Assembly: GCF_030013205.1 (NCBI RefSeq)
Contig: NZ_CP122648.1
Reading direction: 5' to 3' (one strand)
From: Escherichia coli
GTDB lineage: Bacteria; Pseudomonadota; Gammaproteobacteria; Enterobacterales; Enterobacteriaceae
DNA length: 64,000 bases
The number at the start of each line of letters is the position of its first letter. Within the stretch, counting starts at the first letter, position 1. The notes beneath the pieces are model-generated. The model was not told the DNA's origin. It saw only the letters and a program-made list of their open reading frames with translations, and made no database searches. Both the position numbers and the translations under genes were made by a program. Positions 1,444-51,511 of the stretch are shown here, piece by piece.

Positions 1444-1494
1444 TTAGTTCCCCGTCCTGAATCTTGAGAAACAGAATTTTGTGCTGTTATTCAT
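1444..1494 (-). CDS. ilvX: ilvX small peptide (16 aa)
   Basis: Minus-strand ATG AAT AAC AGC ACA AAA TTC TGT TTC TCA AGA TTC AGG ACG GGG AAC TAA = [16 protein letters not shown], immediately upstream of ilvG start. Confidence 0.6.
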
Positions 1495-1523
1495 TGTCTG
1501 CTCCTCAGTTATGTTTTTAAGGT

Positions 1524-1558
1524 CAAAAAAAACCCCCGGACCTTTCGGTGCGGGGGTC
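1524..1558 (-). terminator. ilvL attenuator terminator (GC-rich hairpin followed by U-run on minus strand)
   Basis: Plus strand aaaaaaaacccccggacctttcggtgcggggg; on the minus strand this is a cccccgcacc..ggtccggggg hairpin followed by eight U, located between ilvL and ilvX. Confidence 0.7.
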
Positions 1559-1580
1559 TTAGTTCGTTAAGGCTTGATCT

Positions 1581-1679
1581 CTAAGCCTTTCCTCGTCCAA
1601 GTGCAGCCCCGCACGGTGGGATAATAATCACCACCACGCTAATCACGACCAGGCTAATCACTCGTAGAAGGACTGTCAT
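1581..1679 (-). CDS. ilvL: ilvGMEDA leader peptide
   Basis: Minus-strand ORF translating MTVLLRVISLVVISVVVIIIPPCGAALGRGKA (Ile/Val/Leu-rich leader); stop TAG at 1581-1583. Confidence 0.8.
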   Translation of the reverse strand: MTVLLRVISLVVISVVVIIIPPCGAALGRGKA

Positions 1680-2031
1680 TTTGTCTTTTCTTGCATCTTG
1701 TTCGAAGGAATGCCTAAAGAGTTACCATAGATTTTGCGAATAGCACAAGATATTTTTTGGCCTATTTTTATGATGTCTTTAATAATTTCAAGAGAAATTG
1801 TTGTTTTTTAAAAAGAAAATAGTGAGTGAAAAAAATTCAATTTCAGTATGAATGTTGTTCCCTTCCTCGTAGTTCATCCTTTGCCCGCTGCATTTTTGCG
1901 AGCATCATTCCACCGCCAGAACAACTCAACTTCACTTACACAAATAAACCGGAATCAGCCACTAAAATTCACGAATTAGCGGGCTACAGCAGCGATATCT
2001 TATGCACATAATGGTGACTCAAGGAGGGCTT

Positions 2032-2211
2032 ATGTCACTGTCAATTGTTCATACCCGCGCAGCCCTGGGAGTAAATGCGCCCCCAATCACTGTTGAGGTA
2101 CATATCAGTAAAGGTCTACCCGGCTTAACGATGGTGGGCTTACCAGAAACAACGGTAAAAGAAGCCCGCGATCGCGTGCGCAGCGCCATTATCAATAGCG
2201 GATTTTTATAA
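2032..2211 (+). pseudogene. comM: comM (yifB) 5' fragment, truncated by island insertion after codon ~57
   Basis: Translation MSLSIVHTRAALGVNAPPITVEVHISKGLPGLTMVGLPETTVKEARDRVRSAIINSGF then diverges (L, stop) at the junction; the rest of the gene resumes at 16913. Confidence 0.85.
2194..2203. repeat. attL core copy (aatagcggat)
   Basis: Identical 10-mer at 16907..16916; lies at the exact point where the comM frame breaks. Confidence 0.5.
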
Positions 2212-2300
2212 ATTAGTGTTTTTTGCTGTTTCATAATGTGCCACGTTGTTCATTATGTTTTTGATTTTTAAGTCTATTACAATTTTCATTGTTCCAGCTT

Positions 2301-2353
2301 GTTCCACGTTGTACCCCTTTGTGCAATGATCGGTGTAGTCACTGGTGTAGTCA
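2301..2353. repeat. Subterminal left repeat (gttccacgttgt ... cggtgtagtcactggtgtagtca), candidate integrase arm-type site
   Basis: Imperfect ~55-bp direct repeat of 16781..16838 near the opposite island end. Confidence 0.45.
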
Positions 2354-2391
2354 TTTTTTTTGCAAACAGGGGAGGAAATGTGAGCAGAGCA

Positions 2392-3609
2392 ATGAACAAA
2401 CTGAGCGACACATTGTTAAGAAAACTTCATGGTAAGCCGGCGGAGAAAAATACGTTTTATAGCGATGGCGGAAATCTGAGCGTGAAATATTTAACATCAG
2501 GGAAATTGACCTGGTATTTCACTTACAGGGCGGGAACGGGAAGGGGTACACCACCGGAACGCCTGAAGCTGGGAAATTATCCTGATCTGAGCCTGAAAGC
2601 AGCCAGGGAAAAAGCAGCACAGTGTCGCGCATGGCTGGCAGAAGGAAAAAATCCACGCCATGAGCTTAATTACTCCATACAGGAAGCACTAAAGCCGGTA
2701 ACGGTGGGCGATGCGATCAGCTACTGGCTGGAAATGCACGTAAAGGAAAACCGTGTCGATTACGTATGCCTGAAAAGCCGCCTTAATAATCACGTCATAC
2801 AGCATATTGGCAATATGCCACTGGATAAATGCGAGTTACGTCACTGGCTGGCCTGTTTTGACCGGATACGCAAAAAATCACCCGTAACATCTGGCCACAT
2901 GATGCAGGCGTGTAAACAGGCGCTTAAGTTCTGCCGTAAACGTCGCTACGCAGTCAGTAACGTTCTGGATGATCTCAACGTGGTGGACGTTGGCAAAAAG
3001 CCGGGCATAAGCGAACGCGTGCTGAGCAACAAAGAACTGAGCGAATTATTACAGGCGCTGGATAAAAAAATATTCCCGCCCTACTACAGCGCACTAATCC
3101 GCCTCCTGATTGTGTTCGGCTGCCGGACCGGAGAACTGAGGCTGTCGGAGATCAGGGAGTGGGATTTTAAGGAAATGCTCTGGACAGTACCGAAAGAGCA
3201 CAGCAAAACGAAGGTCGCCATATTCAGGCCAATACCGGAAAGCATTTTGCCGTTCGTCACACAGCTGGTGGAGCAGAACAGGCACACAGGGCTATTACTC
3301 GGGGAACTGAAACAGGAAGCCAGCGTGTCGCAATACGGCAGATTCACGCACAAAAAATTAAACCATCCGCACTGGTCACTACACGATATACGGCGCACGT
3401 TTACCACGATGCTGAACGATTTAGGCGTGGATCCACATATTGTCGAACAACTCACCGCTCACCAGATGCCAGGGATGCAACGAGTCTATAACCACTCCCG
3501 TTATATCGATGCGAAACGTAATGCGCTGGATATGTGGACAGAGCGATTAGAGATACTGGCAGGTGCTCACGAAAACGTAACCACACTGCCAATAGCCAGA
3601 GAAATATAA
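2392..3609 (+). CDS. int: Tyrosine recombinase / phage integrase
   Basis: ORF 2299..3609; likely start ATG 2392 (MNKLSDT) after GGGAGGA at 2368-2376; C-terminal HDIRRTF...VYNHSRY region consistent with a tyrosine-recombinase catalytic domain; abuts attL. Confidence 0.85.
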   Translation: MNKLSDTLLRKLHGKPAEKNTFYSDGGNLSVKYLTSGKLTWYFTYRAGTGRGTPPERLKLGNYPDLSLKAAREKAAQCRAWLAEGKNPRHELNYSIQEALKPVTVGDAISYWLEMHVKENRVDYVCLKSRLNNHVIQHIGNMPLDKCELRHWLACFDRIRKKSPVTSGHMMQACKQALKFCRKRRYAVSNVLDDLNVVDVGKKPGISERVLSNKELSELLQALDKKIFPPYYSALIRLLIVFGCRTGELRLSEIREWDFKEMLWTVPKEHSKTKVAIFRPIPESILPFVTQLVEQNRHTGLLLGELKQEASVSQYGRFTHKKLNHPHWSLHDIRRTFTTMLNDLGVDPHIVEQLTAHQMPGMQRVYNHSRYIDAKRNALDMWTERLEILAGAHENVTTLPIAREI

Positions 3610-3627
3610 TTTTTTTCGCGATTTTTC

Positions 3628-3690
3628 AGAACGGACACAACGTGAAACAACGAGACACAACGACGAACAACGGCGAACAATCTGGAACAA
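3628..3690 (+). repeat. Array of six ~10-bp direct repeats (RAACAACG family) downstream of int
   Basis: acacaacg tgaaacaacg agacacaacg acgaacaacg gcgaacaatc tggaacaaac read directly from sequence. Confidence 0.4.
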
Positions 3691-3976
3691 ACTTGATTAT
3701 CATCTGACCGACACCCTAAAAAGTTGATTTTCAGTCGTTTTACTGGCTTTTTGTACATTGGCGAATCACTCTTAAAAACATGTAAAAAAGGCGTAAAAAC
3801 AGAATTTTACGCTACCGCATCACAATGAATTAAAAGAGTTTTTATTCTCATTACCCCACTTCTGTAAAACGACCGCCACCAGTGTTTGCCATTCCATAAA
3901 CACCCTGACACAATCCGACCCAACCCAACCCAATAATCCACCCAATGACTCTTTAAGAAACAACAAAGGGGGAATT

Positions 3977-4165
3977 GTGTTAAGCACAGATCGCTTTATA
4001 CGTGAAAAAGAATGTCAGCAACTTACAGGCCTGAGCCGTTCATGCCGCTACCGCCTGGAAAAAGCCGGACAATTCCCATCACGGCGTAAACTCGGTGGTC
4101 GTTCCGTTGGCTGGTCTTTATCCGAAGTTCTGGCATGGAAGGACAGCCGCGAGGCAGTTCACTAA
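3977..4165 (+). CDS. alpA: AlpA-family phage transcriptional regulator (62 aa)
   Basis: GTG start after AAAGGGGGA; translation LTGLSRSCRYRLEKAGQFPSRRKLGGRSVGWSLSEVLAW resembles the AlpA/prophage CP4-57 regulator HTH. Confidence 0.7.
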   Translation: MLSTDRFIREKECQQLTGLSRSCRYRLEKAGQFPSRRKLGGRSVGWSLSEVLAWKDSREAVH

Positions 4166-4217
4166 TCAGGCTGGCGGCACACAGCCGCCTCCCATCCACT
4201 AATACAGAGATTTAACC

Positions 4218-5018
4218 ATGAATACTGGATATACGCCTGTACAGGGGCGGGGCTTCGTTCGGCCTGAAAAACAGAATCTGCAAAATTTCGCTGAAATTAT
4301 TCCGGTTATTTCCGGCGTTATTGGTGGGCGTGAAACCACTATTGTTAGCGCCAGAGCGTTACATAAGGCGTTAGGTGTAGGGCGCGTTTTCCGTTCGTGG
4401 ATCAAGGGGCGCATTGAAGAATACGGGTTCACGGAAGGCGTGGATTATGAGGTTGTTGAATATTTGAGCCGACCCGATCCGGTGAGCGCAAAATCTCGCC
4501 AGCAAACCGCTCTTGAGTACATCATCACAGTGAACATGGCGAAAGAACTGGCGATGGTCGAACGTACCGAACAGGGCCGCGCCGTTCGCCAGTACTTTAT
4601 CAAATGCGAGGAGGAGCTACACAAGGTAGCGCCAGTGCGTTCCGCAGCGTTACGCCGGGAACTGAAAGCCCGTATCACCGTTGCCAGCTACTTTAAGCCA
4701 ATGTGTGCCGCGCTGGAGGCGTACCGGGCTGAACTGGGTAAAAACACGTTCCAGCACCACTACACCACGGAAGCCAATATGCTGGCGCGTATCGTGCTGG
4801 GTGGCATGACTGCAAAACAGTGGGCGCAGGCGAACGGCATCACAGGCGAACCACGCGACCACATGAGCACGTTGCAGCTTGAGCACCTTTCTTACCTTGA
4901 GCAGAGCAATATCACGCTGATTGAGTTAGGCCAGGGCTACCACCAGCGGAAAGCTGAATTAATTCGTCTTTCGCAGCGTTGGTTAGCCCGTCGCATGGAG
5001 GAAAACAGCCATGTGTAA
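4218..5018 (+). CDS. Phage antirepressor-like protein (266 aa)
   Basis: N-terminal ...TIVSARALHKALGVGRVFRSWIKGRIEEYGFTEGVDYEV resembles Bro-N/Rha/ORF6N-type antirepressor domains (recollection, unverified). Confidence 0.55.
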   Translation: MNTGYTPVQGRGFVRPEKQNLQNFAEIIPVISGVIGGRETTIVSARALHKALGVGRVFRSWIKGRIEEYGFTEGVDYEVVEYLSRPDPVSAKSRQQTALEYIITVNMAKELAMVERTEQGRAVRQYFIKCEEELHKVAPVRSAALRRELKARITVASYFKPMCAALEAYRAELGKNTFQHHYTTEANMLARIVLGGMTAKQWAQANGITGEPRDHMSTLQLEHLSYLEQSNITLIELGQGYHQRKAELIRLSQRWLARRMEENSHV

Positions 5019-5414
5019 CGCTCTGACCGTTACAAAAAGAGAAAGCGCCCCGTTGCCGGAGCGCCTTTGTGAACGAATAGCCTACTGCGCCATATTGCTT
5101 ACTGTCTACGAGGCAGATTATAGCGTTGTGGTCGCACAGAGTGAAGGCGCTGATCACCGTTACTACAGCACGCCAGAAATGCAGAATATTTTGCTGCAAA
5201 ATGCCGTTGGTCACGCCGTCCGGAAAGCAAAAAATTTTGCTGGTGGCGCGACTGATGCGATTTTGTCAGGTCGCCAGGTGCTGATCAATCTGATGTCTGA
5301 TTTCGTTCTGGATAAAACAAAGGCGACCGCAGAGGGTCGCCAGTGGGTATTACGGCAAATCAAACTTGAACGCATCACCAACAATGCCACATTTGCGGCT
5401 GGTGGGCAATGTGA

Positions 5415-5603
5415 TCAGTCAGATTTGGTTCGTTCCAGGGTTTGCAACGAGAGCTTTTTCCTGCGCTCTTTAAGGAATTTCTCAAGAGCAAACGAACAAG
5501 GTGCGAATCTTTCTGATTCATGCTCTATCTTTCTGCGCCGTCTTTTCCGTGTCGGTGATAATGTTTTGGTCAATTCTTTATCGGTCATTGTGTTGTCCTG
5601 CAT
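5415..5603 (-). CDS. Small basic hypothetical protein (62 aa)
   Basis: Minus-strand ORF with Arg/Lys-rich segment TRKRRRRKIEHESERF; downstream of the RHH gene on the same strand; no clear SD. Confidence 0.35.
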   Translation of the reverse strand: MQDNTMTDKELTKTLSPTRKRRRRKIEHESERFAPCSFALEKFLKERRKKLSLQTLERTKSD

Positions 5604-5645
5604 AGCAATGCGCCGTAGTTACTCACACCACGGCGCTGATAGTGA

Positions 5646-5843
5646 TTATTCTGATTCTTTGGCCTTCCGGCGCTGTTCATATTTTAATTTGCGTCCACAG
5701 GCATCTAAGACCCATGCGGAAAAATTAGCACTAGGATTAGTTAATTTTTCTTGTTCAACGCTGGCATCAATCCCATCTATAAGCTCATGTGGGAATCGAA
5801 TATTTTTCTTTGCTGATTTGTTGTTTGTGTTACCGCTAGACAT
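5646..5843 (-). CDS. Ribbon-helix-helix (CopG/Arc-like) putative repressor (65 aa)
   Basis: KKNIRFPHELIDGIDASV (beta strand) followed by NFSAWVLDACGRKL (helix) pattern; GAGG SD 7 nt upstream; start abuts the palindromic operator cluster. Confidence 0.55.
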   Translation of the reverse strand: MSSGNTNNKSAKKNIRFPHELIDGIDASVEQEKLTNPSANFSAWVLDACGRKLKYEQRRKAKESE

Positions 5844-5870
5844 TGATGCACCTCACTTAAATGGACTTTA

Positions 5871-5951
5871 TGGGCGCACACAATACAGCAAAAAAAATGA
5901 GATGTTAAGTATTGACATGTGCGCACACATGATTTTAATCTGTGCGCACAG
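5871..5951. promoter_or_regulatory. Divergent promoter/operator region with three TGTGCGCACA palindromes
   Basis: tgggcgcaca 5871-5880, tgtgcgcaca 5918-5927, ctgtgcgcacag 5940-5951; TTGACA at 5912-5917 with a 17-bp spacer and ttaatc as candidate -10, so operators sit in the spacer and just downstream. Confidence 0.5.
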
Positions 5952-6048
5952 TTTGAGTTTTGTCACTCAAATTAAGCAACGCCCCGCAGTGCTCGCAACA
6001 CATGCAGGGCGTCTAACCACCAACGATAGCAAGAGTATCGAGGTAGCT

Positions 6049-6252
6049 ATGAGAAATCATACCACACACCCGCAAGGGCGGGACTCGCACAACCTGAATA
6101 AATATATCTGGCGTTTTATCGCCCTGAGCACCGCACAACCGCGCGTGATTCACATCGTGGCCACCAGCGAACAGGAAGCACGCCAGCAATCTCCTGATGG
6201 CTGCGTGATGGTATTCGCTGCCCGTATTCGTCAGGGGGTAAGTCATGCATAA
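6049..6252 (+). CDS. Hypothetical small protein (67 aa), first gene of early operon
   Basis: Internal ATG of the long stop-free frame, preceded by GAGGTAG; 3' end overlaps the next start (ATG 6245). Confidence 0.4.
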   Translation: MRNHTTHPQGRDSHNLNKYIWRFIALSTAQPRVIHIVATSEQEARQQSPDGCVMVFAARIRQGVSHA

Positions 6253-6610
6253 CCTGTCAATTTCTGACCTTAACTGCATTCAGTTTGACGAGAAATTTAC
6301 CGGGCAGCTACTGGTCCATGTGGAGAACGGGCGCATAGTGCGTAATTACCACCTGCCGGATGGTGCAATTGCCGGAAGTGTTGAAGCATTGCTGGAACTG
6401 GCAGAGCGTGCGCGACTGATTAATCCGTCAACGTGCTATCACGATGATGATCTGCATTTTACCGGACGCATGGTGAGCCATTATGAAAACGGCGTTGAGG
6501 TATCCCGCGAACGTATGCGTGATGATTGCTGTTTCGGCACACTGCCGGAATTTATCGAGTTGCTGACCAGTTGCGGTTATCAGGTTATTCAGGGGGTGAA
6601 TTATGGATAA
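6245..6610 (+). CDS. Hypothetical protein (121 aa) with two copies of a ~50-aa repeat module
   Basis: FTGQLLVHVENGRIV...GSVEALLELAERA and FTGRMVSHYENGVEV...GTLPEFIELLTSCG within one ORF; overlaps neighbours at both ends. Confidence 0.6.
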   Translation: MHNLSISDLNCIQFDEKFTGQLLVHVENGRIVRNYHLPDGAIAGSVEALLELAERARLINPSTCYHDDDLHFTGRMVSHYENGVEVSRERMRDDCCFGTLPEFIELLTSCGYQVIQGVNYG

Positions 6611-6803
6611 TCAGCAAGCAACAATGACAATTACCCTGAGTGCGCCAGATGATTTCACCGGACGCATACTGGTTTACCTGGATAAAGGAAAAGTGAAATC
6701 ACAATGCCGACTGAAAAGTAATGAGATTGTTGGTTCTCCTGAATTTTTTTCTGAACTCTGTATTCGTGCGGAAATAAAACCGGAACTGCTGACAGGAAAA
6801 TAA
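6603..6803 (+). CDS. Hypothetical protein (66 aa), single copy of the same repeat module
   Basis: FTGRILVYLDKGKV...GSPEFFSELCIRAEI; start overlaps the previous stop. Confidence 0.6.
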   Translation: MDNQQATMTITLSAPDDFTGRILVYLDKGKVKSQCRLKSNEIVGSPEFFSELCIRAEIKPELLTGK

Positions 6804-6807
6804 AACC

Positions 6808-7098
6808 ATGAAAAAGAAAAATTCTGGCTTTACTGCCAGCGGCCTCTCTCGGCCTGAAATCCGCCCCGGTGATATTTTCCGGGACACCAGACGCGGGGGA
6901 CGGGTGGTTATTCGTCACGTTACGCCAGGCAATATCACCTACCGCCGTGAGGCTTACGAATATGACTGCGTAATGCCGCGCCGTCAGTTTGATCGTGATT
7001 TTATTCTGGTGGAAAACAAACAACTGGCAGTGGCGAGACGTGCAGCCACGAATATTAAAAAAATCCGGGCAATGTTGGTTGCGGGAGGTAAGAAGTGA
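6808..7098 (+). CDS. Hypothetical basic protein (96 aa)
   Basis: ORF with stop overlapping the GTG start of the helicase gene (GTGA at 7095-7098). Confidence 0.5.
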   Translation: MKKKNSGFTASGLSRPEIRPGDIFRDTRRGGRVVIRHVTPGNITYRREAYEYDCVMPRRQFDRDFILVENKQLAVARRAATNIKKIRAMLVAGGKK

Positions 7099-8507
7099 AA
7101 AACGCACCGAGTCTAAAATATCAGCCGAAGGATAAATTCACTGAGGTAATCATTTTTGCCGGGACGGATGCTTACGCCCATGCTCAACACTGGATTGAAA
7201 GTGAAGGACGAAAACACGGCGATAACGTGCCTCCTGTTTACCTGGGGCCAAAGCAACTGGCAGACCTGGCGAATATCCGCATTATTGACGAGAAACGCCG
7301 TTTTGCGCGTGTCTATATCGCGGGGGAGATAGAGCCAATCCAGATCAATACTATCGCTGAAAAGCTGGCGCTGGCTGGCGTACAGGAGGCGAAATTATAC
7401 AAAGGTATCACCGACCAGGAACCGGAGAACTGGCGCGACTACCTGCAACGGATCCGCGAACAGGCTGAGCGCGAAGAAATGCTTACTGACGAGCAATACA
7501 GCCAGCGAAAAACCACGCTACCAATGAGCATTGGATCGGAAGGATACGATTCACAGCTTAGCTATGTGGTTAAGGGTGTGATTCCGGCTAATTCGTTGTG
7601 CAGCACATACGGTGCGAGCGGTTCTTATAAGTCGTTCCTTGCGTGTTCGTGGGCGTGTCATGTTGCTACCGGTATCCCGTGGGGAGGTCGCAGGGTTGTA
7701 CATGGTGCGGTGATGTATGTCGTTGGTGAGGGCGGGATCGGTGTTCCTCGTCGTATCAAGGCATGGGAACTGGTGAACAGTGAGCAGGTGAAAAATCTGT
7801 ACCTGGTAAATCGTCCAATTTTTCCGGCCGCACCGAGTGATGTTGATGAAATGGTTATTGCTGCCCGACAGGTTGAGCAGGAAACGGGTAAACCTGTACG
7901 CATGATTATTCTGGATACTCTGGCGCGTTGCTTTGGTGGCAGCGATGAAAATGATGCGCGGGATATGGGGGCATTTGTCCATGGATGTGACGAACTGAAA
8001 CGGCGTACAGGCGCTACAGTGCTGGTAATTCACCATTCCGGCAAGGATGAAACAAAGGGTGCGCGCGGTTCCAGTGCGTTTCGTGCAGCACTGGATGCAG
8101 AGTACCGGATACGCCGTGAAGGTGCAGGCAGTGAAGCCCTGGTTATCGCATGTACCAAGATGAAGGATGCGGAGGAACTGAAAGAAATGGCTTGCGATTT
8201 GCGCGAGGTTGAGCTTTTCAAGGATGAAGGCGGGGAGTTAATCACGTCATTGGTGCTGGAGGATAAGCCCCGTCCGCCAGTTGAACTGGAGCGCATCGAG
8301 TACGCTGCTAACAAGACAGAGAATCACGTCGCGCTATGGGGCTGTATCCGTTCACGCACGCAACGCGGAGATAAATGCACTATCCCGTTGTTGCGCGATG
8401 ACATGAAAAAGCTGGGGTATGAGATGAAACACTTCCGGCGCTGGCTGTACAAGCTGGAAGGTGACGGCGTAATCACTATTGACGGTGATGACGTGCGCCC
8501 ACTGTAA
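7095..8507 (+). CDS. Replication helicase/primase-like protein, RecA-fold (AAA_25/RepA-like) ATPase (470 aa)
   Basis: GASGSYKSF Walker-A-like motif, MIILDTLARCFGG and LVIHHSGKDETKGARGSSAF motifs typical of RepA/DnaB-like helicases; iterons immediately downstream. Confidence 0.65.
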   Translation: MKNAPSLKYQPKDKFTEVIIFAGTDAYAHAQHWIESEGRKHGDNVPPVYLGPKQLADLANIRIIDEKRRFARVYIAGEIEPIQINTIAEKLALAGVQEAKLYKGITDQEPENWRDYLQRIREQAEREEMLTDEQYSQRKTTLPMSIGSEGYDSQLSYVVKGVIPANSLCSTYGASGSYKSFLACSWACHVATGIPWGGRRVVHGAVMYVVGEGGIGVPRRIKAWELVNSEQVKNLYLVNRPIFPAAPSDVDEMVIAARQVEQETGKPVRMIILDTLARCFGGSDENDARDMGAFVHGCDELKRRTGATVLVIHHSGKDETKGARGSSAFRAALDAEYRIRREGAGSEALVIACTKMKDAEELKEMACDLREVELFKDEGGELITSLVLEDKPRPPVELERIEYAANKTENHVALWGCIRSRTQRGDKCTIPLLRDDMKKLGYEMKHFRRWLYKLEGDGVITIDGDDVRPL

Positions 8508-16916: not shown

Positions 16917-18265
16917 ATGAATATCCGGCGAAAAAAATCACCATCAACCTTGCTCCAGCCGATCTGCCAAAAGAAGGGGGACGATATGATTTACCTATCG
17001 CCATTGCGTTGCTGGCGGCCTCAGAACAGCTTACAGCCAATAAATTAGATGAATATGAATTAGTCGGAGAACTGGCGCTTACAGGCGCTCTGCGTGGCGT
17101 TCCCGGCGCAATCTCCAGTGCAACTGAAGCTATTAAGTCGGGCAGAAAAATTATCGTCGCGAAAGATAACGAAGATGAAGTGGGGCTAATTAACGGTGAA
17201 GGATGCCTGATAGCCGATCATCTGCAGGCTGTCTGTGCGTTTCTGGAAGGTAAGCACGCTCTCGAACGCCCGAAACCAACTGATGCAGTATCCCGGGCAC
17301 AACAACATGATCTCAATGATGTTGTCGGTCAGGAGCAAGGAAAGCGAGGACTGGAAATTACCGCCGCTGGCGGGCACAACCTTTTACTGATTGGGCCGCC
17401 GGGAACAGGTAAAACAATGCTCGCCAGCCGTATTAATGGCCTGTTGCCAGATTTAAGCAATGAAGAGGCACTGGAGAGCGCGGCGATATTAAGTCTGGTA
17501 AATGCTGAATCAGTACAAAAACAATGGCGGCAGCGCCCGTTCCGCTCACCGCATCACAGTGCGTCGTTAACTGCGATGGTGGGCGGTGGTGCAATTCCAG
17601 GGCCAGGTGAAATTTCGCTGGCACATAACGGCGTGCTTTTTCTTGATGAGCTACCTGAATTTGAACGGCGTACACTGGATGCCTTGCGAGAGCCGATTGA
17701 ATCCGGGCAGATCCATCTTTCACGCACACGAGCAAAAATAACCTATCCAGCCCGTTTCCAACTTGTTGCGGCGATGAATCCCAGCCCTACCGGACATTAT
17801 CAGGGAAACCATAACCGCTGCACACCAGAACAGACATTACGTTATCTCAACCGGCTCTCGGGGCCCTTTCTCGACCGCTTCGATCTCTCACTGGAGATCC
17901 CATTACCGCCCCCCGGCATTTTGAGTAAAACGGTAGTGCCGGGAGAAAACAGCACCACCGTTAAACAACGCGTAATGGCCGCCAGAGAGCGCCAATTTAA
18001 GCGGCAGAATAAACTGAATGCCTGGCTGGATAGTCCGGAAATACGCCAATTCTGCAAGCTTGAGAGCGAAGATGCGCAGTGGCTGGAAGAAACGCTGATC
18101 CATCTGGGGTTATCGATTCGTGCCTGGCAGCGGTTACTGAAAGTAGCACGAACCATTGCTGATATTGATCAGTCCGACATTATCACACGTCAGCATTTGC
18201 AGGAGGCAGTTAGCTATCGTGCCATTGACCGTTTGCTCATCCATCTGCAAAAACTACTGACATAA
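16913..18265 (+). pseudogene. comM: comM (yifB) 3' portion, Mg-chelatase-like AAA+ ATPase, separated from its 5' end by the island
   Basis: In-frame continuation G(Y)EYPAKKITINLAPADLPKEGG...; Walker A LLIGPPGTGKTM; ends ...LIHLQKLLT. Confidence 0.85.
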
Positions 18266-18628: not shown

Positions 18629-18746
18629 CCTGCACGCTCCTAATTCTTTGACCGAGCTAGTTATGGCGCGGAGTATTAGTTACGCTTGACAGAGTGTAAA
18701 ACAAAACATTTAAATCATAACGACAAATAATTTTGCGGAGAGCACT

Positions 18747-19586
18747 GTGGATACGGAATTGTTAAAAACTTTCCTGGAAGTTAGCCGAACGCGTCACTTT
18801 GGTCGAGCAGCTGAATCGCTCTATCTGACCCAATCAGCCGTGAGCTTTCGAATCAGACAACTGGAAAATCAACTGGGTGTGAATCTTTTCACCCGCCACA
18901 GAAACAATATCCGTTTAACCGCTGCCGGTGAAAAACTACTGCCTTATGCAGAAACGCTCATGAGCACCTGGCAGGCCGCCCGTAAGGAGGTGGCGCATAC
19001 CTCACGACATAACGAGTTTTCTATCGGTGCCAGCGCCTCATTGTGGGAATGTATGCTTAATCAGTGGCTGGGACGTTTGTATAAAAATCAGGATGCCCAT
19101 ACAGGCTTACAGTTCGAAGCGCGAATTGCCCAACGGCAGTCTCTGGTAAAACAGCTGCATGAACGCCAGCTTGATCTTCTTATTACTACTGAAGCGCCCA
19201 AAATGGACGAATTTAGCAGTCAGTTGCTCGGGTATTTCACTTTAGCGCTTTATACCAGTGCCCCTTCCAAACTAAAGGGAGATCTTAACTATCTGCGACT
19301 GGAATGGGGGCCAGATTTTCAACAGCATGAGGCAGGTTTGATCGGTGCTGACGAAGTTCCCATTCTGACAACCAGTTCTGCTGAACTGGCACAGCAACAG
19401 ATTGCGACGCTTAATGGTTGCACCTGGCTACCCGTCAGTTGGGCGCGTAAAAAGGGCGGCCTGCATACCGTTGTCGATAGCACAACACTTTCACGGCCGC
19501 TTTATGCCATATGGCTGCAAAATAGCGATAAAAATGCGTTGATTCGCGATCTATTGAAAATTAACGTGCTGGATGAAGTGTATTAA
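18747..19586 (+). CDS. hdfR: LysR-family transcriptional regulator HdfR
   Basis: GTG start; [40 protein letters not shown] LysR HTH; 279 aa. Confidence 0.9.
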
Positions 19587-19646
19587 TCTGAATGGCTGGC
19601 AAGGATGCCGGTAGAAGGATTTACTTCTGAGAGGTTATTTCAGATA

Positions 19647-19672
19647 AAAAAAATCCTTAGCTTTCGCTAAGG
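19647..19672 (-). terminator. rrnC operon terminator
   Basis: atccttagctttcgctaaggat hairpin preceded by an A-run on the plus strand (U-run on minus). Confidence 0.6.
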
Positions 19673-19680
19673 ATGATTTC

Positions 19681-19756
19681 TGGCAGGGGCGGAGAGACTC
19701 GAACTCCCAACACCCGGTTTTGGAGACCGGTGCTCTACCAATTGAACTACGCCCCT
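19681..19756 (-). tRNA. trpT: tRNA-Trp
   Basis: Reverse complement reads AGGGGCGTAGTTCAATTGGTAGAGCACCGGTCTCCAAAACCGG...GCCCCTGCCA. Confidence 0.92.
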
Positions 19757-19764
19757 AATTAGGG

Positions 19765-19841
19765 TGGCGGAACGGACGGGACTCGAACCCGCGACCCCCT
19801 GCGTGACAGGCAGGTATTCTAACCGACTGAACTACCGCTCC
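19765..19841 (-). tRNA. aspT: tRNA-Asp
   Basis: Reverse complement reads GGAGCGGTAGTTCAGTCGGTTAGAATACCTGCCTGTCACGCAGG...CCGCCA. Confidence 0.92.
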
Positions 19842-19893
19842 ACCGAATTCTTTTACAACCACCGGTTTTATGACCGGCTTACTGCTTAATTTG

Positions 19894-20013
19894 ATGCCTG
19901 GCAGTTCCCTACTCTCGCATGGGGAGACCCCACACTACCATCGGCGCTACGGCGTTTCACTTCTGAGTTCGGCATGGGGTCAGGTGGGACCACCGCGCTA
20001 AGGCCGCCAGGCA
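19894..20013 (-). rRNA. rrfC: 5S ribosomal RNA
   Basis: 120 nt; reverse complement begins TGCCTGGCGGCC and ends AACTGCCAGGCAT. Confidence 0.92.
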
Positions 20014-20105
20014 AATTCTGTTTCATCAGACCGCTTCTGCGTTCTGATTTAATCTGTATCAGGCTGAAAATCTTCTCTCATCCGCCAAAACATCTTCGGC
20101 GTTGT

Positions 20106-23010
<2,905 letters not shown>

Positions 23011-23203
23011 TCACAACCCGAAGATGTTTCTTTCGATTCATCATCGTGTTGCGAAAATTTGAGAGACTCACGAACAACTTTCGTTGTTCAGTGTTTCAAT
23101 TTTCAGCTTGATCCAGATTTTTAAAGAGCAAATATCTCAAACATCACCCGAAGATGAGTTTTGAGATATCAAGGCAGGTGACTTTCACTCACAAACCAGC
23201 AAG

Positions 23204-23279
23204 TGGCGTCCCCTAGGGGATTCGAACCCCTGTTACCGCCGTGAAAGGGCGGTGTCCTGGGCCTCTAGACGAAGGGGAC
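23204..23279 (-). tRNA. gltU: tRNA-Glu (16S-23S spacer)
   Basis: Reverse complement reads GTCCCCTTCGTCTAGAGGCCCAGGACACCGCCCTTTCACGGCGG...GGGACGCCA. Confidence 0.92.
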
Positions 23280-23364
23280 GTGTCAGTCTGCTTCGCAAGA
23301 CGCCTTGCTTTTCACTTTCTATCAGACAATCTGTGTGAGCACTTCAAAGAACGCTTCTTTAAGG

Positions 23365-24906
<1,542 letters not shown>

Positions 24907-25386: not shown

Positions 25387-26079
25387 ATGCCTTTAAGCGC
25401 ACAACAGTTAGCTGCACAGAAAAACCTTTCGTATGTTCTGGCTGAGAAGCTGGCGCAACGCATCTTAAAAGGTGAATATGAACCCGGCACCATTTTGCCT
25501 GGTGAGATTGAGCTGGGCGAGCAATTTGGAGTGAGTCGTACAGCGGTACGCGAAGCGGTCAAAACGTTAACGGCAAAAGGGATGGTTTTACCGCGACCGC
25601 GAATTGGTACCCGGGTCATGCCACAATCAAACTGGAATTTTCTTGATCAGGAATTGCTTACCTGGTGGATGACAGAAGAGAACTTTCATCAGGTCATCGA
25701 TCACTTTCTGGTTATGCGTATCTGTCTGGAGCCGCAAGCTTGCCTACTGGCTGCAACGGTTGGCACCGCGGAACAGAAGGCGCATCTCAATACGTTAATG
25801 GCCGAAATGGTGGCATTAAAAGAGAACTTTCGCCGTGAACGCTGGATTGAGGTCGATATGGCTTGGCATGAGCATATCTATGAAATGAGCGCCAATCCGT
25901 TTTTGACCTCATTCGCCTCGCTATTCCATTCGGTTTATCACACTTACTTCACGTCAATTACCAGCGACACAGTGATAAAGCTGGATCTGCACCAGGCGAT
26001 TGTTGACGCGATTATCCAAAGCGATGGCGACGCGGCATTTAAAGCTTGTCAGGCGCTGCTACGCTCACCTGATAAGTGA
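25387..26079 (+). CDS. yieP: GntR/FadR-family transcriptional regulator YieP
   Basis: 230-aa ORF with N-terminal winged-HTH LPGEIELGEQFGVSRTAVREAVKTL. Confidence 0.9.
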   Translation: MPLSAQQLAAQKNLSYVLAEKLAQRILKGEYEPGTILPGEIELGEQFGVSRTAVREAVKTLTAKGMVLPRPRIGTRVMPQSNWNFLDQELLTWWMTEENFHQVIDHFLVMRICLEPQACLLAATVGTAEQKAHLNTLMAEMVALKENFRRERWIEVDMAWHEHIYEMSANPFLTSFASLFHSVYHTYFTSITSDTVIKLDLHQAIVDAIIQSDGDAAFKACQALLRSPDK

Positions 26080-26101
26080 CACCCCGATAACAGGACATTG
26101 A

Positions 26102-27529
26102 ATGAGCGATAAAAAGAAGCGCAGTATGGCGGGTTTGCCGTGGATCGCGGCGATGGCCTTCTTCATGCAGGCACTTGATGCCACTATTCTGAATACCGCC
26201 TTACCCGCAATCGCTCATAGCCTTAATCGTTCTCCTCTCGCGATGCAATCAGCCATCATCAGTTATACGCTGACGGTGGCGATGCTTATTCCGGTAAGCG
26301 GATGGCTAGCCGATCGCTTCGGTACGCGTCGCATATTTACCCTTGCCGTGAGTCTGTTCACGTTGGGTTCTCTGGCCTGCGCACTTTCTAACTCGCTACC
26401 ACAGCTGGTTGTCTTCCGGGTTATTCAGGGGATAGGCGGCGCAATGATGATGCCTGTTGCTCGGCTGGCCTTACTGCGCGCTTATCCTCGTAATGAGCTT
26501 CTTCCTGTATTGAATTTTGTCGCCATGCCGGGTCTGGTGGGGCCAATTTTAGGCCCCGTTCTTGGCGGCGTGCTGGTCACCTGGGCAACCTGGCACTGGA
26601 TATTTTTAATCAATATCCCCATAGGTATTGCGGGCCTTCTTTACGCGCGCAAACATATGCCCAATTTCACCACCGCACGACGCAGATTCGATATCACTGG
26701 CTTTTTGCTGTTTGGCCTTAGCCTTGTTCTCTTCTCAAGCGGAATAGAGCTATTCGGGGAAAAGATTGTCGCCAGTTGGATTGCCTTGACGGTAATTGTC
26801 ACCAGCATCGGGTTACTGCTTCTCTATATTCTCCATGCACGACGCACGCCAAACCCATTAATTTCATTAGATTTATTTAAAACCCGCACTTTCTCGATCG
26901 GTATCGTAGGCAATATTGCAACCCGTCTGGGGACCGGCTGTGTACCGTTCCTTATGCCATTGATGTTACAGGTAGGATTTGGTTATCAGGCGTTTATTGC
27001 CGGCTGTATGATGGCACCGACAGCGTTAGGTTCCATTATTGCAAAATCGATGGTTACCCAAGTCTTACGTCGTCTGGGCTATCGCCATACGTTAGTGGGG
27101 ATCACGGTGATTATTGGGCTAATGATCGCTCAGTTCTCTTTGCAATCACCAGCAATGGCGATATGGATGCTGATCTTGCCGTTGTTTATATTAGGGATGG
27201 CTATGTCGACGCAATTTACCGCAATGAATACCATCACACTTGCCGATCTGACCGATGACAACGCCAGCAGCGGTAACAGTGTTCTGGCGGTCACGCAGCA
27301 ACTGTCTATCAGTTTAGGCGTTGCTGTAAGTGCGGCCGTCCTTCGCGTTTATGAAGGGATGGAAGGCACAACGACAGTCGAACAATTCCACTATACGTTT
27401 ATCACGATGGGCATTATTACTGTTGCTTCAGCAGCAATGTTCATGCTTCTGAAAACAACCGATGGTAATAATTTGATCAAAAGACAGCGTAAATCTAAGC
27501 CGAACCGCGTTCCATCAGAATCGGAGTAA
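26102..27529 (+). CDS. hsrA: MFS transporter HsrA (YieO)
   Basis: 475-aa ORF with multiple hydrophobic TM segments; synteny yieP-hsrA-rbsR. Confidence 0.9.
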
Positions 27530-28487
27530 GTTGTAATCGTTGTTGCTGAAGGGTCGGCTGGGTTATCCGATGGATGAGTACATCAATCGCCAGCTCCCCC
27601 AGTTCATCTTTCGGTTGGTGGATAGTGGTTAATGGTGGCGTCATAAAGCTTGCCAGTTCGATATCGTCATAGCCAATCACCGCGATATCCTGCGGAACCT
27701 GTAACTCTGCCTGATACAGCGCCTGGTAAACGCCAACAGCCATAGCGTCATTTCCGGTAAAGACGGCCTGAGGACGCAGCGGATGTGATAACAGTTGGCG
27801 CATGGCGTCAAACCCGCCGTTAAATTCAAAATCACCAGTGACTTCATAGCCATCAGGAATGTTGAGGCCCGCACGTTTCATCGCCGCCCGATAACCTTCC
27901 AACCGCAGGCGCGCCGGAGTTTTATCCAGCGGACCGGTAATACAGGCGATACGGGTATGACCTTTATCGATCAGATATTGCGTTGCTAAGTCTCCGCCCA
28001 GCAACGAGTTATCCTGAATAAGATCGCTGTCGCCATCGAACGGAGCCCAGTCCATCATCACAGTAGGCACTGTCGGATAACGTTGCATGATTTCACGCGA
28101 AGGTTGATGCGTTTCGGTGCACAGTAACAGCAAGCCATCAACGCGTTTTTGCATCAGCGTTTCCAGATTGCGATTCATCCGCTGTTCATCGCCTTCGGTA
28201 TTGCAAAGGACGAGACTATAACCGCGTTCGAAGCAGCTGCGTTCAACGCCACGCACTAGTTCTGAATAGAAAGGATTGGTACTGGCAGTGATCAACATGC
28301 CAATGGTATGTGTTTGATTGAGCTTGAGGCTACGCGCCAGAGCTGATGGCGCGTAATTGAGTTCTTTAATCGCCGCTTCAACTTTGGCGGTAATCGCTTC
28401 ACTGACGAAGCGATCTTTATTGATAACGTGAGAAACTGTTGAGGTAGAAACGCCCGCCAGGCGGGCAACATCTTTCATTGTAGCCAA
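27495..28487 (-). CDS. rbsR: Ribose operon repressor (LacI family)
   Basis: [23 protein letters not shown] LacI-type HTH; 330 aa; 3' end overlaps hsrA 3' end by 35 bp. Confidence 0.9.
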
Positions 28488-28490
28488 GCG

Positions 28491-29420
28491 TCACCTCTGC
28501 CTGTCTAAAAATGCGTCGATCTCTTCACGCCACGGTACGGAAGGTTGTGCGCCTTTACGTGTTACGGCAATCGCAGCGGCGGCATGGGCAAAACGAATCG
28601 CCTCTGGCAATGGTTTTTCTTCCAGCAACGCCGTGATTAACGCGCCGTTAAAGGTATCTCCGGCAGCAATGGTATCGACAGCCTGCACCCGGAATCCAGG
28701 AACGCGCTGACCTTCACCATTCACGCTAGCCCATACACCACGACTTCCTAAAGTAATCAGTACAGTACGGATACCTTTTTCATGCAGTACCTGCGCCGCC
28801 TTCGCTGCATCTTCATCATTTTCAACACGAATACCGGTGAGCTTTTCTGCTTCCGTTTCGTTTGGCGTAATAATGTCCACCAGCGCCAGCAGTTCGTCAG
28901 GAAGTTCGCGAGCCGGAGCCGGGTTAAGCGCAACGATAGTCTTATTTTGATGGGCGATTTTCGCCGCTGCGATCACACTTTCGAGTGGTGATTCCAGCTG
29001 CATTAATAATGCTGACGCGTTGGCAATACGCTCACGTTGCGCTTCCACCAGCGCAGGGGAAAGGGCAGCATTAGCGCCGGCATGAATACCAATGACATTC
29101 TCACCTTCGCCATTAACAAAAATCAGCGCCACACCTGTTGATTCGCCTTTGATCACGCTGACCGGAGAAATATCAATGTTATCAGTGGCGAGCTGCTGGC
29201 GAACGCTCTCACCAATACTGTCATCACCCGTACAGGCAATAAACGCGATATTCGCACCGCTACGCCCAGCAGCCACAGCCTGATTAGCGCCTTTGCCGCC
29301 AAATGCAACCTGATAGTGGTTACCGGTTACGGTTTCGCCTGGAGTAGGAAAAGATTGAAGATTAAGAATGTGGTCAGCATTAATGCTGCCAAGAACAACG
29401 AGGCTGCCTGCGTTTTGCAT
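28491..29420 (-). CDS. rbsK: Ribokinase
   Basis: ORF 28491..29447; preferred start at MQNAGSLVVLGSINADH giving 309 aa. Confidence 0.9.
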   Translation of the reverse strand: MQNAGSLVVLGSINADHILNLQSFPTPGETVTGNHYQVAFGGKGANQAVAAGRSGANIAFIACTGDDSIGESVRQQLATDNIDISPVSVIKGESTGVALIFVNGEGENVIGIHAGANAALSPALVEAQRERIANASALLMQLESPLESVIAAAKIAHQNKTIVALNPAPARELPDELLALVDIITPNETEAEKLTGIRVENDEDAAKAAQVLHEKGIRTVLITLGSRGVWASVNGEGQRVPGFRVQAVDTIAAGDTFNGALITALLEEKPLPEAIRFAHAAAAIAVTRKGAQPSVPWREEIDAFLDRQR

Positions 29421-29545
29421 ATTCGGGATGTCCATAAAATGCGCCACCGTGTTAGGGTGGCGCGTGCCCTGCTTTTCTTTATATTACACGTTCATCTGTC
29501 GATGCCGTATTTATGTCACCATCAGGTCATACAACCTGATTAAAA

Positions 29546-30436
29546 CTACTGCTTAACAACCAGTTTCAGATCAACCGGATACTTAGCCTGAACTTTCTCG
29601 CCTTTCAGTACTTTATCTGCGGTTTCGACGCCTTTCGCGCCAATCTGATCGGGTAGCTGAGCGATAGTCGCTGCTAGTTTGCCATCATTCACCGCTTTTT
29701 CGCCATCCGGTGTACCATCAAATCCGACGACCATCACATCCGATTTACCGGCAGTTTGCAGTGCGCGCAGCGCGCCCAGCGCCATTTCATCATTCTGCGC
29801 GAATACAGCCTGAACATCCGGATGTGCGGTCAACAGGTTCTGCATTACGTTCAAACCTTTAGTGCGATCAAAATCTGCTGGCTGGCTGGCAAGAACATTA
29901 AACTTGTGAGCAGCAACAGCCTGCTGGAAGCCTTCGCCACGTTCACGGGCTGCGGATGTACCGGCAATGCCTTGCAGCTCGATAACTTTGGCACCTTCAC
30001 CCGCTTTCTTCGCGATGTAATCACCGGCGATTTTGCCGCCCAGTACGTTATCAGAAGCAATGTGGCTCACCACTTCACCTTTCGTTGCCTGGCGGTCAAG
30101 AGTGATAACCGGGATGTTCGCCTGGTTAGCCATCTTCACAGCATTACCCACTGCGTCGGAGTCGGTCGGGTTAATCAGCAGAATTTTGGTGCCGCGAACG
30201 GTTAAGTCCTGCACGTTCGCCAGCTCTTTCGCCGGGTTGTTCTGGGAGTCCAGCACCACCAGGTTATAGCCAAGTTTATCCGCCTCTTTCTGCGCGCCAT
30301 CTTTCAGCGATACAAAGAACGGGTTGTTAAGCGTGGAGACCACCAGCGCGATGGTGTCTTTTGCCATCGCATTCGCACTGACGGTGGCGCTTAGCGCAAC
30401 AGCGGAAACCAGGGTAGCCAGTTTTTTCATGTTCAT
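29546..30436 (-). CDS. rbsB: Ribose ABC transporter periplasmic binding protein
   Basis: [25 protein letters not shown] signal peptide; 296 aa. Confidence 0.9.
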
Positions 30437-35620: not shown

Positions 35621-37117
35621 ATGGCTCACCCTCATTTATTAGCGGAAAGAATTTCCCGCCTGAGCAGTTCGTTGGAAAAGGGGCTTTATGAACGTAGCCA
35701 CGCCATCCGCTTGTGTTTATTAGCGGCATTAAGTGGTGAAAGTGTGTTCCTCCTTGGCCCGCCAGGCATTGCCAAAAGTTTGATCGCCCGGCGCTTAAAA
35801 TTCGCCTTTCAGAATGCCCGCGCGTTTGAATATCTGATGACCCGCTTCTCCACGCCGGAAGAGGTTTTTGGTCCCCTTTCTATTCAGGCGCTAAAAGATG
35901 AAGGGCGCTATGAACGTTTAACCAGCGGTTACCTGCCGGAAGCAGAAATCGTCTTTCTGGATGAGATCTGGAAAGCGGGCCCGGCAATTCTTAATACCTT
36001 GCTCACCGCCATTAACGAGCGCCAGTTCCGCAACGGTGCACACGTAGAAAAAATCCCGATGCGCCTGCTGGTGGCGGCCTCCAACGAGCTGCCGGAAGCA
36101 GACAGCAGTCTGGAAGCGTTATATGACCGCATGCTGATTCGTCTGTGGTTAGATAAAGTGCAGGATAAAGCGAATTTCCGCTCCATGCTGACCAGTCAAC
36201 AGGATGAAAACGACAATCCGGTTCCTGCCTCCTTGCAGGTCACAGATGAAGAATATGAACGCTGGCAGAAAGAGATTGGTGAAATTACGCTGCCCGATCA
36301 TGTATTTGAGCTGATTTTTATGCTGCGCCAGCAACTGGATAAATTACCGGATGCGCCTTATGTCTCGGATCGTCGCTGGAAAAAAGCGATCCGCTTATTG
36401 CAGGCCAGCGCCTTTTTTAACGGTCGCAGTGCTGTTGCCCCGGTTGATCTCATTTTGCTGAAAGATTGCCTGTGGTATGACGCGCAAAGCCTGAATTTGA
36501 TACAACAACAAATTGATGTATTGATGACCGGTCATGCCTGGCAACAGCAAGGGATGTTGACCCGCCTGGGCGCGATTGTGCAACGTCACCTGCAACTACA
36601 GCAGCAACAAAGCGATAAAACAGCCTTAACGGTAATTCGTCTGGGCGGCATTTTCAGCCGTCGTCAGCAGTATCAACTCCCTGTTAACGTTACTGCTTCC
36701 ACTCTGACTCTGCTGCTGCAAAAACCGTTAAAACTGCATGATATGGAAGTGGTTCATATCTCCTTTGAGCGTAACGCGCTGGAACAGTGGCTGAGTAAAG
36801 GTGGTGAAATTCGCGGCAAACTGAACGGTATCGGCTTTGCTCAGAAATTGAATCTGGAAGTGGATAGCGCCCAACATCTTGTTGTACGCGATGTAAGTTT
36901 ACAAGGCAGTACGTTGGCACTTCCCGGTTCATCGGCTGAAGGTCTGCCAGGTGAAATAAAACAACAACTGGAAGAGCTTGAAAGCGACTGGCGCAAGCAA
37001 CACGCTTTATTCAGCGAACAGCAAAAATGTCTGTTTATCCCTGGCGACTGGTTAGGTCGCATTGAAGCCAGCCTACAGGATGTCGGCGCACAGATTCGCC
37101 AGGCACAACAATGCTAA
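35621..37117 (+). CDS. ravA: AAA+ ATPase RavA
   Basis: [14 protein letters not shown]... with Walker [11 protein letters not shown]; 498 aa from ATG 35621. Confidence 0.9.
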
Positions 37118-38562
37118 CGCTGGATACGCTTAATGTGATGCTGGCCGTCAGCGAAGAGGGATTGATCGAAGAGATGATCATCGCGCTGCTGGCCTCACCG
37201 CAGCTGGCAGTCTTCTTTGAAAAATTCCCACGACTGAAGGCGGCAATCACTGATGATGTTCCCCGCTGGCGTGAGGCGCTGCGCAGTCGGCTGAAAGATG
37301 CCCGAGTCCCGCCGGAACTCACCGAAGAGGTGATGTGCTATCAGCAAAGCCAGCTCCTCTCCACGCCGCAGTTTATTGTGCAGCTACCACAGATCCTGGA
37401 CTTACTGCATCGTCTGAATTCCCCATGGGCAGAACAAGCCCGACAGTTGGTTGATGCTAACAGCACGATCACTTCAGCGTTACACACGCTTTTTCTCCAG
37501 CGTTGGCGTTTAAGTCTGATCGTGCAAGCAACGACGTTAAATCAACAGCTATTAGAAGAAGAACGCGAACAACTGTTGAGTGAAGTTCAGGAACGCATGA
37601 CGCTGAGCGGACAACTTGAACCGATTCTCGCAGATAACAATACCGCAGCTGGTCGTCTGTGGGATATGAGCGCCGGTCAGCTTAAACGTGGCGACTATCA
37701 GTTGATTGTGAAATACGGTGAATTTCTTAACGAACAGCCGGAACTGAAACGCCTGGCAGAACAGCTGGGGCGTTCCCGGGAAGCCAAATCAATACCGCGC
37801 AACGATGCGCAGATGGAAACCTTCCGCACCATGGTGCGCGAACCGGCGACGGTTCCTGAGCAGGTTGATGGTCTGCAACAAAGCGATGATATTTTACGTC
37901 TCCTGCCGCCAGAACTGGCGACACTAGGGATAACAGAACTGGAGTATGAGTTTTACCGTCGGCTGGTGGAAAAACAGTTGCTCACCTATCGCCTGCACGG
38001 TGAGTCGTGGCGAGAAAAAGTGATCGAACGTCCGGTGGTACATAAAGATTACGACGAACAGCCGCGCGGACCGTTTATTGTCTGTGTGGATACTTCCGGC
38101 TCAATGGGCGGCTTTAATGAACAGTGTGCGAAAGCGTTCTGCCTGGCCTTGATGCGCATTGCTCTCGCTGAAAACCGGCGCTGCTATATTATGCTATTTT
38201 CCACCGAGATCGTCCGTTATGAGCTTTCAGGCCCACAAGGCATCGAACAAGCGATCCGCTTTTTAAGTCAGCAGTTTCGTGGCGGCACCGATCTGGCCAG
38301 TTGTTTTCGCGCCATTATGGAACGCTTGCAAAGTCGGGAGTGGTTTGACGCCGATGCGGTGGTGATTTCTGATTTTATCGCCCAGCGGTTGCCTGACGAC
38401 GTGACGAGCAAAGTGAAAGAGTTGCAGCGGGTACATCAGAATCGCTTTCATGCCGTGGCGATGTCGGCACATGGCAAACCCGGCATCATGCGCATTTTCG
38501 ATCATATCTGGCGCTTTGATACCGGGATGCGAAGCCGCCTGCTCAGACGCTGGCGGCGATAA
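37111..38562 (+). CDS. viaA: VWA-domain protein ViaA (YieM)
   Basis: 483-aa ORF overlapping the ravA stop; C-terminal VWA-like DTSGSM motif. Confidence 0.9.
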
Positions 38563-38566
38563 ACAA

Positions 38567-39559
38567 TTACAGCAGAGAAGGGACGCTCTCGCGAACAGCT
38601 GCCGGCCATACACCACACTGAACCTGGCCGATATGCGGCAGTTGCAGCAGCAGCATGGTCAAACGAGACTGGCCGATACCGCCGCCGATGGTCTGCGGCA
38701 TTTCACCGCGCAGCAGCGCCTGATGCCACTCCAGCTGCAGACGATCTTCATCACCGGTCAGCGCCAGCTGATGCTTCAACGTATCGGCATCCACGCGGAT
38801 CCCCATGGAAGAAAGCTCAAACGCATCTTCCAGTACCGGGTTCCATACCAGAATATCGCCGTTCAGACCCGCATGGCCCAGCTCTGACGGGGTGCTCCAG
38901 TCATCATAATCCGGTGCGCGCACGTCGTGACGATGACCATCACTCAACTTGCCGCCAATCCCGACGAGGAATACCGCGCCAAGATCTTTCGCAATCGCCC
39001 GCTCACGCCCTTTGGCATCGAGATCCGGATAACGAGACAGTAACTCCTGGCTGTGTACGAAGTGGATCTGATCCGGCAGGAACGGTGCCAGGCCAAACTC
39101 TTCGCTAACCGCAGCTTCGGTTGCTTTAATTCCCGCCCAGATCGCCTCTACCGTGCTTTTCAGAGTCGAGAATTGACGCTCGCCGTCGCCCATTACGCGT
39201 TCCCAGTCCCACTGGTCTACATAGACCGAGTGCAACGGAGAAAGACGGTCTTCATCGGGGCGAAGGGCTTTCATGTGCGTGTACAGCCCTTCGCCCGCGC
39301 TGAAGTCGTGTTGCCCTAAGGTCTGACGTTTCCACTTCGCCAGTGAATGAACCACTTCGAACTGGGCATCAGGCAGAGCTTTTACTTTTACCTGCACCGC
39401 TTTTTCACAGCCCGACAAGTTATCCTGCGTGCCATCCCCCACACGGCTAAGAATCGGCGCCTGGACTTCGATCAGCCCCAGACGTTCTTCCAGTTGACGA
39501 GAAAAGTGAGATTTCACGAAGCTAATTTGGCGTTGTTTGGCAATGTAAGCGGTTTTCAT
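38567..39559 (-). CDS. asnA: Aspartate--ammonia ligase (asparagine synthetase A)
   Basis: 330-aa ORF starting [35 protein letters not shown]. Confidence 0.9.
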
Positions 39560-51215: not shown

Positions 51216-51511
51216 GCGTTGCCCCGTCCTGAATAGCGTTCACATAGATCCTGCTGATATAAAACACCCTGTTTTCCCGTTTATTCATTGATCGAAATAA
51301 GAGCAAAAACATCCACCTGACGCTTAAATGAAGGTATTGCCTTATTTTTCTGCAGACAAAAGGCGTGACGATGGTCGAAAATGGCGCTTTCGTCAGCGGG
51401 GATAATCCGTTATTGAACAATTTATCCTCTGTCCATTTCACGATGAAAAAAATGTAGTTTTTTCAAGGTGAAGCGGTTTAAATTCGTTCTCAAATTACAG
51501 TCAGGACGCGT

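Follow-up and report, generated by a model that had tools for sequence, protein, structure and literature searches.

Convergent gene pairs with overlapping coding sequences are a recognized minority class in E. coli, in which 58 (PMC2174442) and 75 (PMC4161906) such pairs have been counted. Among convergent overlaps of at least 5 nt, the phase that Lillo & Krakauer denote (123:132) occurs most often, and movement or mutation of the stop codon has been proposed as the origin of these overlaps (PMC2174442; PMC4161906). The most frequent short form is the CTAA/TTAA tetramer of the 4-nt class (PMC2174442), which comprises the stop-on-stop arrangements CTAA, TTAA, CTAG and TTAG. A further related group is the convergent excludons, such as mscL-arfA, whose transcripts overlap at their 3' ends and which are defined by mutually exclusive expression of the two partners. 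The yieP-hsrA operon and its conserved position beside the ribose operon have also been described already (PMC11340327).

The stretch of DNA analysed here, referred to as the window, covers 64,000 nucleotides of the E. coli contig NZ_CP122648.1, and it contains a junction at which hsrA and rbsR converge. The features of this junction and its neighbour are as follows.

25387..26079, plus strand: yieP, which heads the yieP-hsrA operon and codes for a GntR/FadR-family regulator, in the same place relative to hsrA in K_EC180 and MG1655
26102..27529, plus strand: hsrA, a DHA2-type MFS transporter of 475 aa, with the PGAP label 'mdtD'
27495..28487, minus strand: rbsR, the LacI-family ribose operon repressor of 330 aa and the last gene of rbsDACBKR
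27495..27529, both strands: the convergent overlap of coding sequences, CTAAGCCGAACCGCGTTCCATCAGAATCGGAGTAA, in phase (123:132), the same 35 bp as in MG1655
27527..27529, plus strand: the hsrA stop codon TAA, lying across the Leu-Thr codons of rbsR (cTT Act)
27495..27497, minus strand: the rbsR stop codon TAG, which reads CTA on the plus strand
27495..27498, no strand assigned: CTAA, made up of the complement of the rbsR stop TAG and a TAA out of frame for hsrA

The ORF table placed 35 bp (27495..27529) in both the plus-strand frame 26102..27529 and the minus-strand frame 27495..28487, and both stop codons were found in the sequence, in agreement with the preliminary description, which had put the last codons of hsrA and rbsR on the same 35 bp of opposite strands. 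Each gene contributed its stop codon and 10 full codons to the shared DNA, together with 2 nt of a Ser codon in hsrA and 2 nt of a Leu codon in rbsR on the opposite strand. Positions 1, 2 and 3 of the hsrA codons faced positions 1, 3 and 2 of the rbsR codons, so that first positions stood against first positions and second positions against third positions. The two genes thus lie on opposite strands and share nucleotides at their 3' ends, stop codons included. Chance is not a relevant test for such an overlap because the ends of both reading frames are fixed by stop codons.

The junction is very probably an ordinary, already annotated tail-to-tail overlap of the last genes of the yieP-hsrA and rbsDACBKR operons. 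No observation contradicted this basic reading. The reading frames of hsrA and rbsR meet head-on without intergenic DNA, and the hsrA frame skips the TAA embedded in CTAA and gains 10 more codons, antisense to the C-terminus of RbsR, before it meets the next in-frame TAA. How long the overlap turns out follows, as a by-product, from the hsrA frame at the junction, and that frame is set by single-nucleotide differences in length just after the conserved His-Lys codons. As no terminator fits between the two genes, each transcript has to end inside the partner gene, that of hsrA through Rho-dependent termination within antisense rbsR. We infer that no dedicated function attaches to the overlap itself.

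Comparison with the reference genome showed that this overlap is already known and typical of the convergent class. In NC_000913.3, rbsR occupies 3938227..3939219 (+) and hsrA 3939185..3940612 (-), and the annotated gene ends overlap by the same 35 bp. The preliminary description had given this arrangement as normal for E. coli and had proposed alignment to a reference annotation as the check; the statement proved accurate, and the gene names, strands and positions that it had read from the window were right to the exact base. MG1655 rbsR (b3753) and hsrA (b3754) represent the same feature, with identical overlap sequence, overlap length and proteins, and the gene order, with yieP-hsrA convergent on rbsDACBKR, is likewise identical. 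The window differs from MG1655 in running as the reverse complement of its numbering and, between 27400 and 27620, in one base of a synonymous region about 90 nt upstream of the overlap.

Both partners of the overlap are genuine protein-coding genes. HsrA scored above the cut-offs of two profiles, NCBIfam NF007799 (458.6 bits, cut-off 426) and TIGR00711 (264.9 bits), and RbsR matched the NCBIfam RbsR equivalog NF007743 over its full length with 697.2 bits (cut-off 531). The two proteins were 100% identical to those of MG1655 without insertions or deletions, and orthologues were found in six other genera. The naming of hsrA varied with the source of the annotation. In the RefSeq E. coli records inspected, PGAP named the gene 'mdtD: multidrug transporter subunit MdtD', and in the curated MG1655 record it is hsrA, 'putative transporter HsrA'. 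The 'mdtD' label derives from NF007799, a model of the type 'subfamily' and not an equivalog, which the sequence does match.

The true mdtD of E. coli K-12 sits in mdtABCD-baeSR. The gene in the window follows yieP and converges on rbsR, and its assignment as the MdtD of mdtABCD-baeSR was rejected on the basis of this location. The PGAP name is a family-level label and not a different gene, and it is misleading because the gene lies outside the mdtABCD operon.

The orthologous junctions in other genera were then compared by tracing HsrA orthologues of 83-86% identity to their own contigs in six other genera. The order yieP-hsrA convergent on rbsR-rbsK-rbsB was kept without a spacer in every genus sampled (seven including Escherichia), and the overlaps were as follows.

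Citrobacter koseri: overlap of 35 bp
Salmonella enterica: overlap of 35 bp
Enterobacter cloacae complex: overlap of 35 bp
Kosakonia: overlap of 9 bp
Pseudocitrobacter: overlap of 4 bp, TTAA, stop on stop
'[Enterobacter] lignolyticus': overlap of 4 bp, CTAA, stop on stop

The conserved end of HsrA was ...NLIKERHK, and the spacer between the His-Lys codons and the complement of the rbsR stop differed among the groups. It measured 7 nt in the group with the 35-bp overlap (13 nt in Enterobacter), 8 nt in the group with the 4-bp overlap, in which the TAA of CTAA or TTAA is in frame, and 9 nt in Kosakonia with its 9-bp overlap. In every genome read, the observed overlap was exactly as long as the stretch up to the first stop of the hsrA frame in use, and the unused frames would yield overlaps of 4 bp, of 35 to 42 bp or of over 50 bp. 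All three antiparallel phases were present among the orthologous junctions. Overlap length is therefore attributed to the hsrA frame at the junction, which is set by the spacer after the His-Lys codons.

These length differences are consistent with the "stop-codon shift" by which convergent overlaps are generally held to arise. Like the convergent prokaryotic pairs studied by Lillo & Krakauer (2007, PMC2174442) and by Huvet & Stumpf (2014, PMC4161906), hsrA and rbsR are two real genes with shared 3' ends in phase (123:132), but the shift among the hsrA relatives appears to be a 1-nt insertion or deletion that alters the frame just before the stop, and not a point mutation of the stop codon. 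The junctions of Pseudocitrobacter (TTAA) and '[Enterobacter] lignolyticus' (CTAA) belong to the 4-nt stop-on-stop class. In contrast, the TAA of the E. coli CTAA at 27495-27498 is out of the hsrA frame, and the ORF runs 31 nt further. Outgroups for the direction of change between 4 bp and 35 bp were sought by an exhaustive search of representatives, in which the next-nearest clusters, at 51-53% identity, lay in unrelated contexts without rbsR or yieP; these relatives were unusable as outgroups because they do not adjoin rbsR.

Sequence variation in the shared DNA was compared with that in the flanking part of rbsR. Among Escherichia, Salmonella, Citrobacter and Enterobacter, 9 of the 35 sites in the overlap were variable, including three second-codon positions of rbsR and two sites at which first positions face each other. 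In the adjoining 105 nt that code for rbsR only, 37 sites were variable, 29 of them third positions. Stronger purifying selection on the doubly coding 35 bp was considered and rejected, as no clear excess of constraint was seen in this small sample (9/35 versus 37/105). The extreme C-termini of HsrA and RbsR appear to tolerate change, and their tails do not seem unusually constrained. The TAA at 27527-27529 persisted in each of the four genera that have 35 bp of overlap, in which the Leu-Thr codons of rbsR stay CTT-ACT; the corresponding codons in Kosakonia are CTG-ACG. That four genera have kept exactly 35 bp and the TAA could be due to some selection and not to common descent.

Terminators and structured RNA elements were sought at the junction. 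No intrinsic terminator was found there by a consensus scan of 26900-28100, which returned a single weak site, within hsrA at 27113, against a chance expectation of 0.8. Neither an inverted repeat nor a bidirectional intrinsic terminator, that is, a G+C-rich hairpin between an A-tract and a T-tract, was present at the junction. The minimum free energy of the junction RNA was not unusual, with z about -1.1 on both strands relative to shuffled sequences, and no Rfam family was found between 25000 and 51000.

Published data from MG1655 point instead to termination of the hsrA transcript by Rho. Adams et al. (2021, PMC7815308, Supplementary file 2) listed a Rho termination region at 3938923 (-), classified as "antisense rbsR", with a Rho score of 2.78 and a p value of 7.6e-6. 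It was put into window coordinates by collinearity with MG1655, so that its position is approximate:

27780..27800 (about 27791), plus strand: published Rho-dependent termination region of the hsrA transcript, antisense to rbsR and some 262 nt beyond the hsrA stop

Just upstream of this region, at 27655-27705, the C:G ratio on the hsrA strand rose mildly to 1.4-1.6, with a similar rise on the rbsR strand, which is at best a hint of a Rho utilisation site. For the rbsR transcript, no 3' end on the strand antisense to hsrA is listed by Adams et al. 2021 (PMC7815308). In addition, ExcludonFinder placed rbsR-hsrA among 165 convergent excludons in at least 50% of 58 MG1655 transcriptomes (PMC12288877). 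From this list and the published Rho region, the mRNAs of hsrA and rbsR overlap far beyond the 35 coding bases, because the hsrA transcript ends by Rho a few hundred nucleotides into antisense rbsR.

Three further published transcript features belong to the ribose operon itself. The small RNA RbsZ (MG1655 b4804), derived from the 3' end of rbsB, mapped to 29436..29669 (-), and its terminator sequence was exact at 29436..29472 (-). Adams et al. 2021 (PMC7815308) reported a 3' end seen by Term-seq 98 nt inside rbsR, at MG1655 3938325 (+) or about 28389 (-) in the window, and a Rho termination region in the 5' part of the gene, at MG1655 3938387 (+) or about 28327 (-), with a Rho score of 3.77. 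This 3' end and this Rho region suggest premature termination within rbsR.

The overlap of the transcripts raises another reading, in which the junction would be a convergent excludon maintained by selection, with transcription of the ribose operon and of yieP-hsrA antagonizing each other through transcriptional interference or through cutting of the duplex by RNase III; we consider it unlikely. It would have ribose induction and HsrA efflux expressed reciprocally. The presence of the pair on the published list speaks for it, as do the reach of the hsrA transcript, which covers no less than some 260 nt of antisense rbsR before Rho ends it (PMC7815308), and the spacer-free gene order in all seven genera. 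In transcript overlap, as seen in published RNA-seq (PMC12288877), rbsR-hsrA does resemble mscL-arfA and the other convergent excludons. However, such overlap is expected of any convergent pair without a terminator between its genes, which forces the transcripts to overlap in antisense, and membership of the list is not regulatory evidence. The mutually exclusive expression that defines an excludon is only putative for rbsR-hsrA, whose assignment to this class rests here on the published transcript overlap.

Several features of the junction also argue against selection for mutual exclusion. The length of the coding overlap varies from 4 to 9 to 35 bp among the genera and reaches 68 bp in one E. 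coli strain; a conserved structure or motif was absent from the junction in the searches for terminators, folds and Rfam families; the density of substitutions in the overlap was similar to that in the flank; and neither reciprocal expression data nor expression data under ribose induction were found for rbsR-hsrA. As a working form of this reading, ribose-induced read-through from rbsDACBKR might lower yieP-hsrA, or YieP-activated transcription of hsrA might lower RbsR and so tune ribose repression, but we hold this to be improbable as well. If it were true, selection on the arrangement would explain why Escherichia, Salmonella, Citrobacter and Enterobacter have all kept the exact 35 bp and the hsrA TAA.

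The ordinary tail-to-tail overlap was, in addition, highly reproducible within the species. All but two of 5426 complete E. coli genomes (5424) contained the 2.6-kb locus. Over a 90-bp stretch with the overlap at its centre, 3850 of the 5414 records that matched were at least 99% identical, which at this length means zero mismatches, and the rest were 95-99% identical. K_EC180 matched window 26000-28600 at 100% and is annotated with a 35-bp overlap. DEF2 and O157:H7, two strains with variant junctions sampled from the 90-bp search, have one or two bases changed (98.9% and 97.8% identity) and are still annotated with 35 bp. Together with MG1655 and three other genera, these independent genomes reproduced the overlap. 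An error of sequencing or assembly, or a mis-called ORF end, is scarcely conceivable as its source and is effectively refuted by the MG1655 annotation, the sequence identity and the 90-bp survey: nothing was found in its favour. Long overlaps do sometimes arise from misprediction (PMC2478687), but such errors affect start codons. The 3' ends here are set by stop codons and not by the choice of a gene caller, the 90-bp junction recurs without a mismatch in 3850 complete genomes that are independent of one another, the overlap is also present in the curated annotation of MG1655, and independent assemblies of other genera have the same arrangement (35 bp in three).

One natural variant illustrates the consequence of double coding. 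E. coli WY517-2 (NZ_CP076259.1) carries a 15-bp deletion, CATCAGAATCGGAGT, inside the overlap, corresponding to window 27513..27527. The deletion removes five codons of rbsR (TPILM), leaving an RbsR of 325 aa, and it also removes the hsrA stop, giving an HsrA of 486 aa and extending the overlap:

3528..3595 of the locus copy from NZ_CP076259.1: WY517-2 overlap, 68 bp

A single mutation in the doubly coding region thus changes two proteins at once.

A second convergent junction in the window lies in the region 37111..39559, where viaA (+, ends 38562) and asnA (-, ends 38567) are separated by a 4-bp gap; the published list of excludons includes asnA-viaA too (PMC12288877). In the same region, ravA and viaA overlap co-directionally at 37111..37117. 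A complete rrn operon of rrnC composition (16S, tRNA-Glu, 23S, 5S, tRNA-Asp, tRNA-Trp) occupies 19684..24906 (-), with a StyR-44 match inside it at 23018..23126. Two other Rfam matches were the sRNA STnc410 at 51271..51428 (-), with 187 bits, and 'Rev39 5' UTR' at 1461..1750 (-), with 157 bits, the latter lying across the leader region of ilvL/ilvX, upstream of ilvG.

Elsewhere in the window, yifB/comM is split into a 5' stub (2032..2205) and a 3' part (16901..18265) by an integrative element of about 14.7 kb (about 2206..16900). Its cargo includes a tyrosine integrase (2380..3609), an HTH regulator, an AntA/AntB antirepressor, Icd-like genes, a RepA-family helicase (7095..8507), ProQ/FinO, PerC and NUDIX genes and a lytic transglycosylase (12955..14994), and the element looks like a phage-satellite or PICI-like island. 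Among the 5426 complete E. coli genomes, window 1-20000 was covered to at least 80% in just 2, with porcine ETEC4079 at 100% identity.

The main value of the hsrA/rbsR result is as a quality check, in which the gene ends given by the preliminary description were exact and the reference arrangement had been correctly stated. Biologically, the junction is one of several dozen convergent overlaps of E. coli, and current understanding is unchanged. The comparison among genera provides a small, textbook-style example of how length changes of 1 nt before a stop codon toggle overlaps of 4, 9 and 35 bp.
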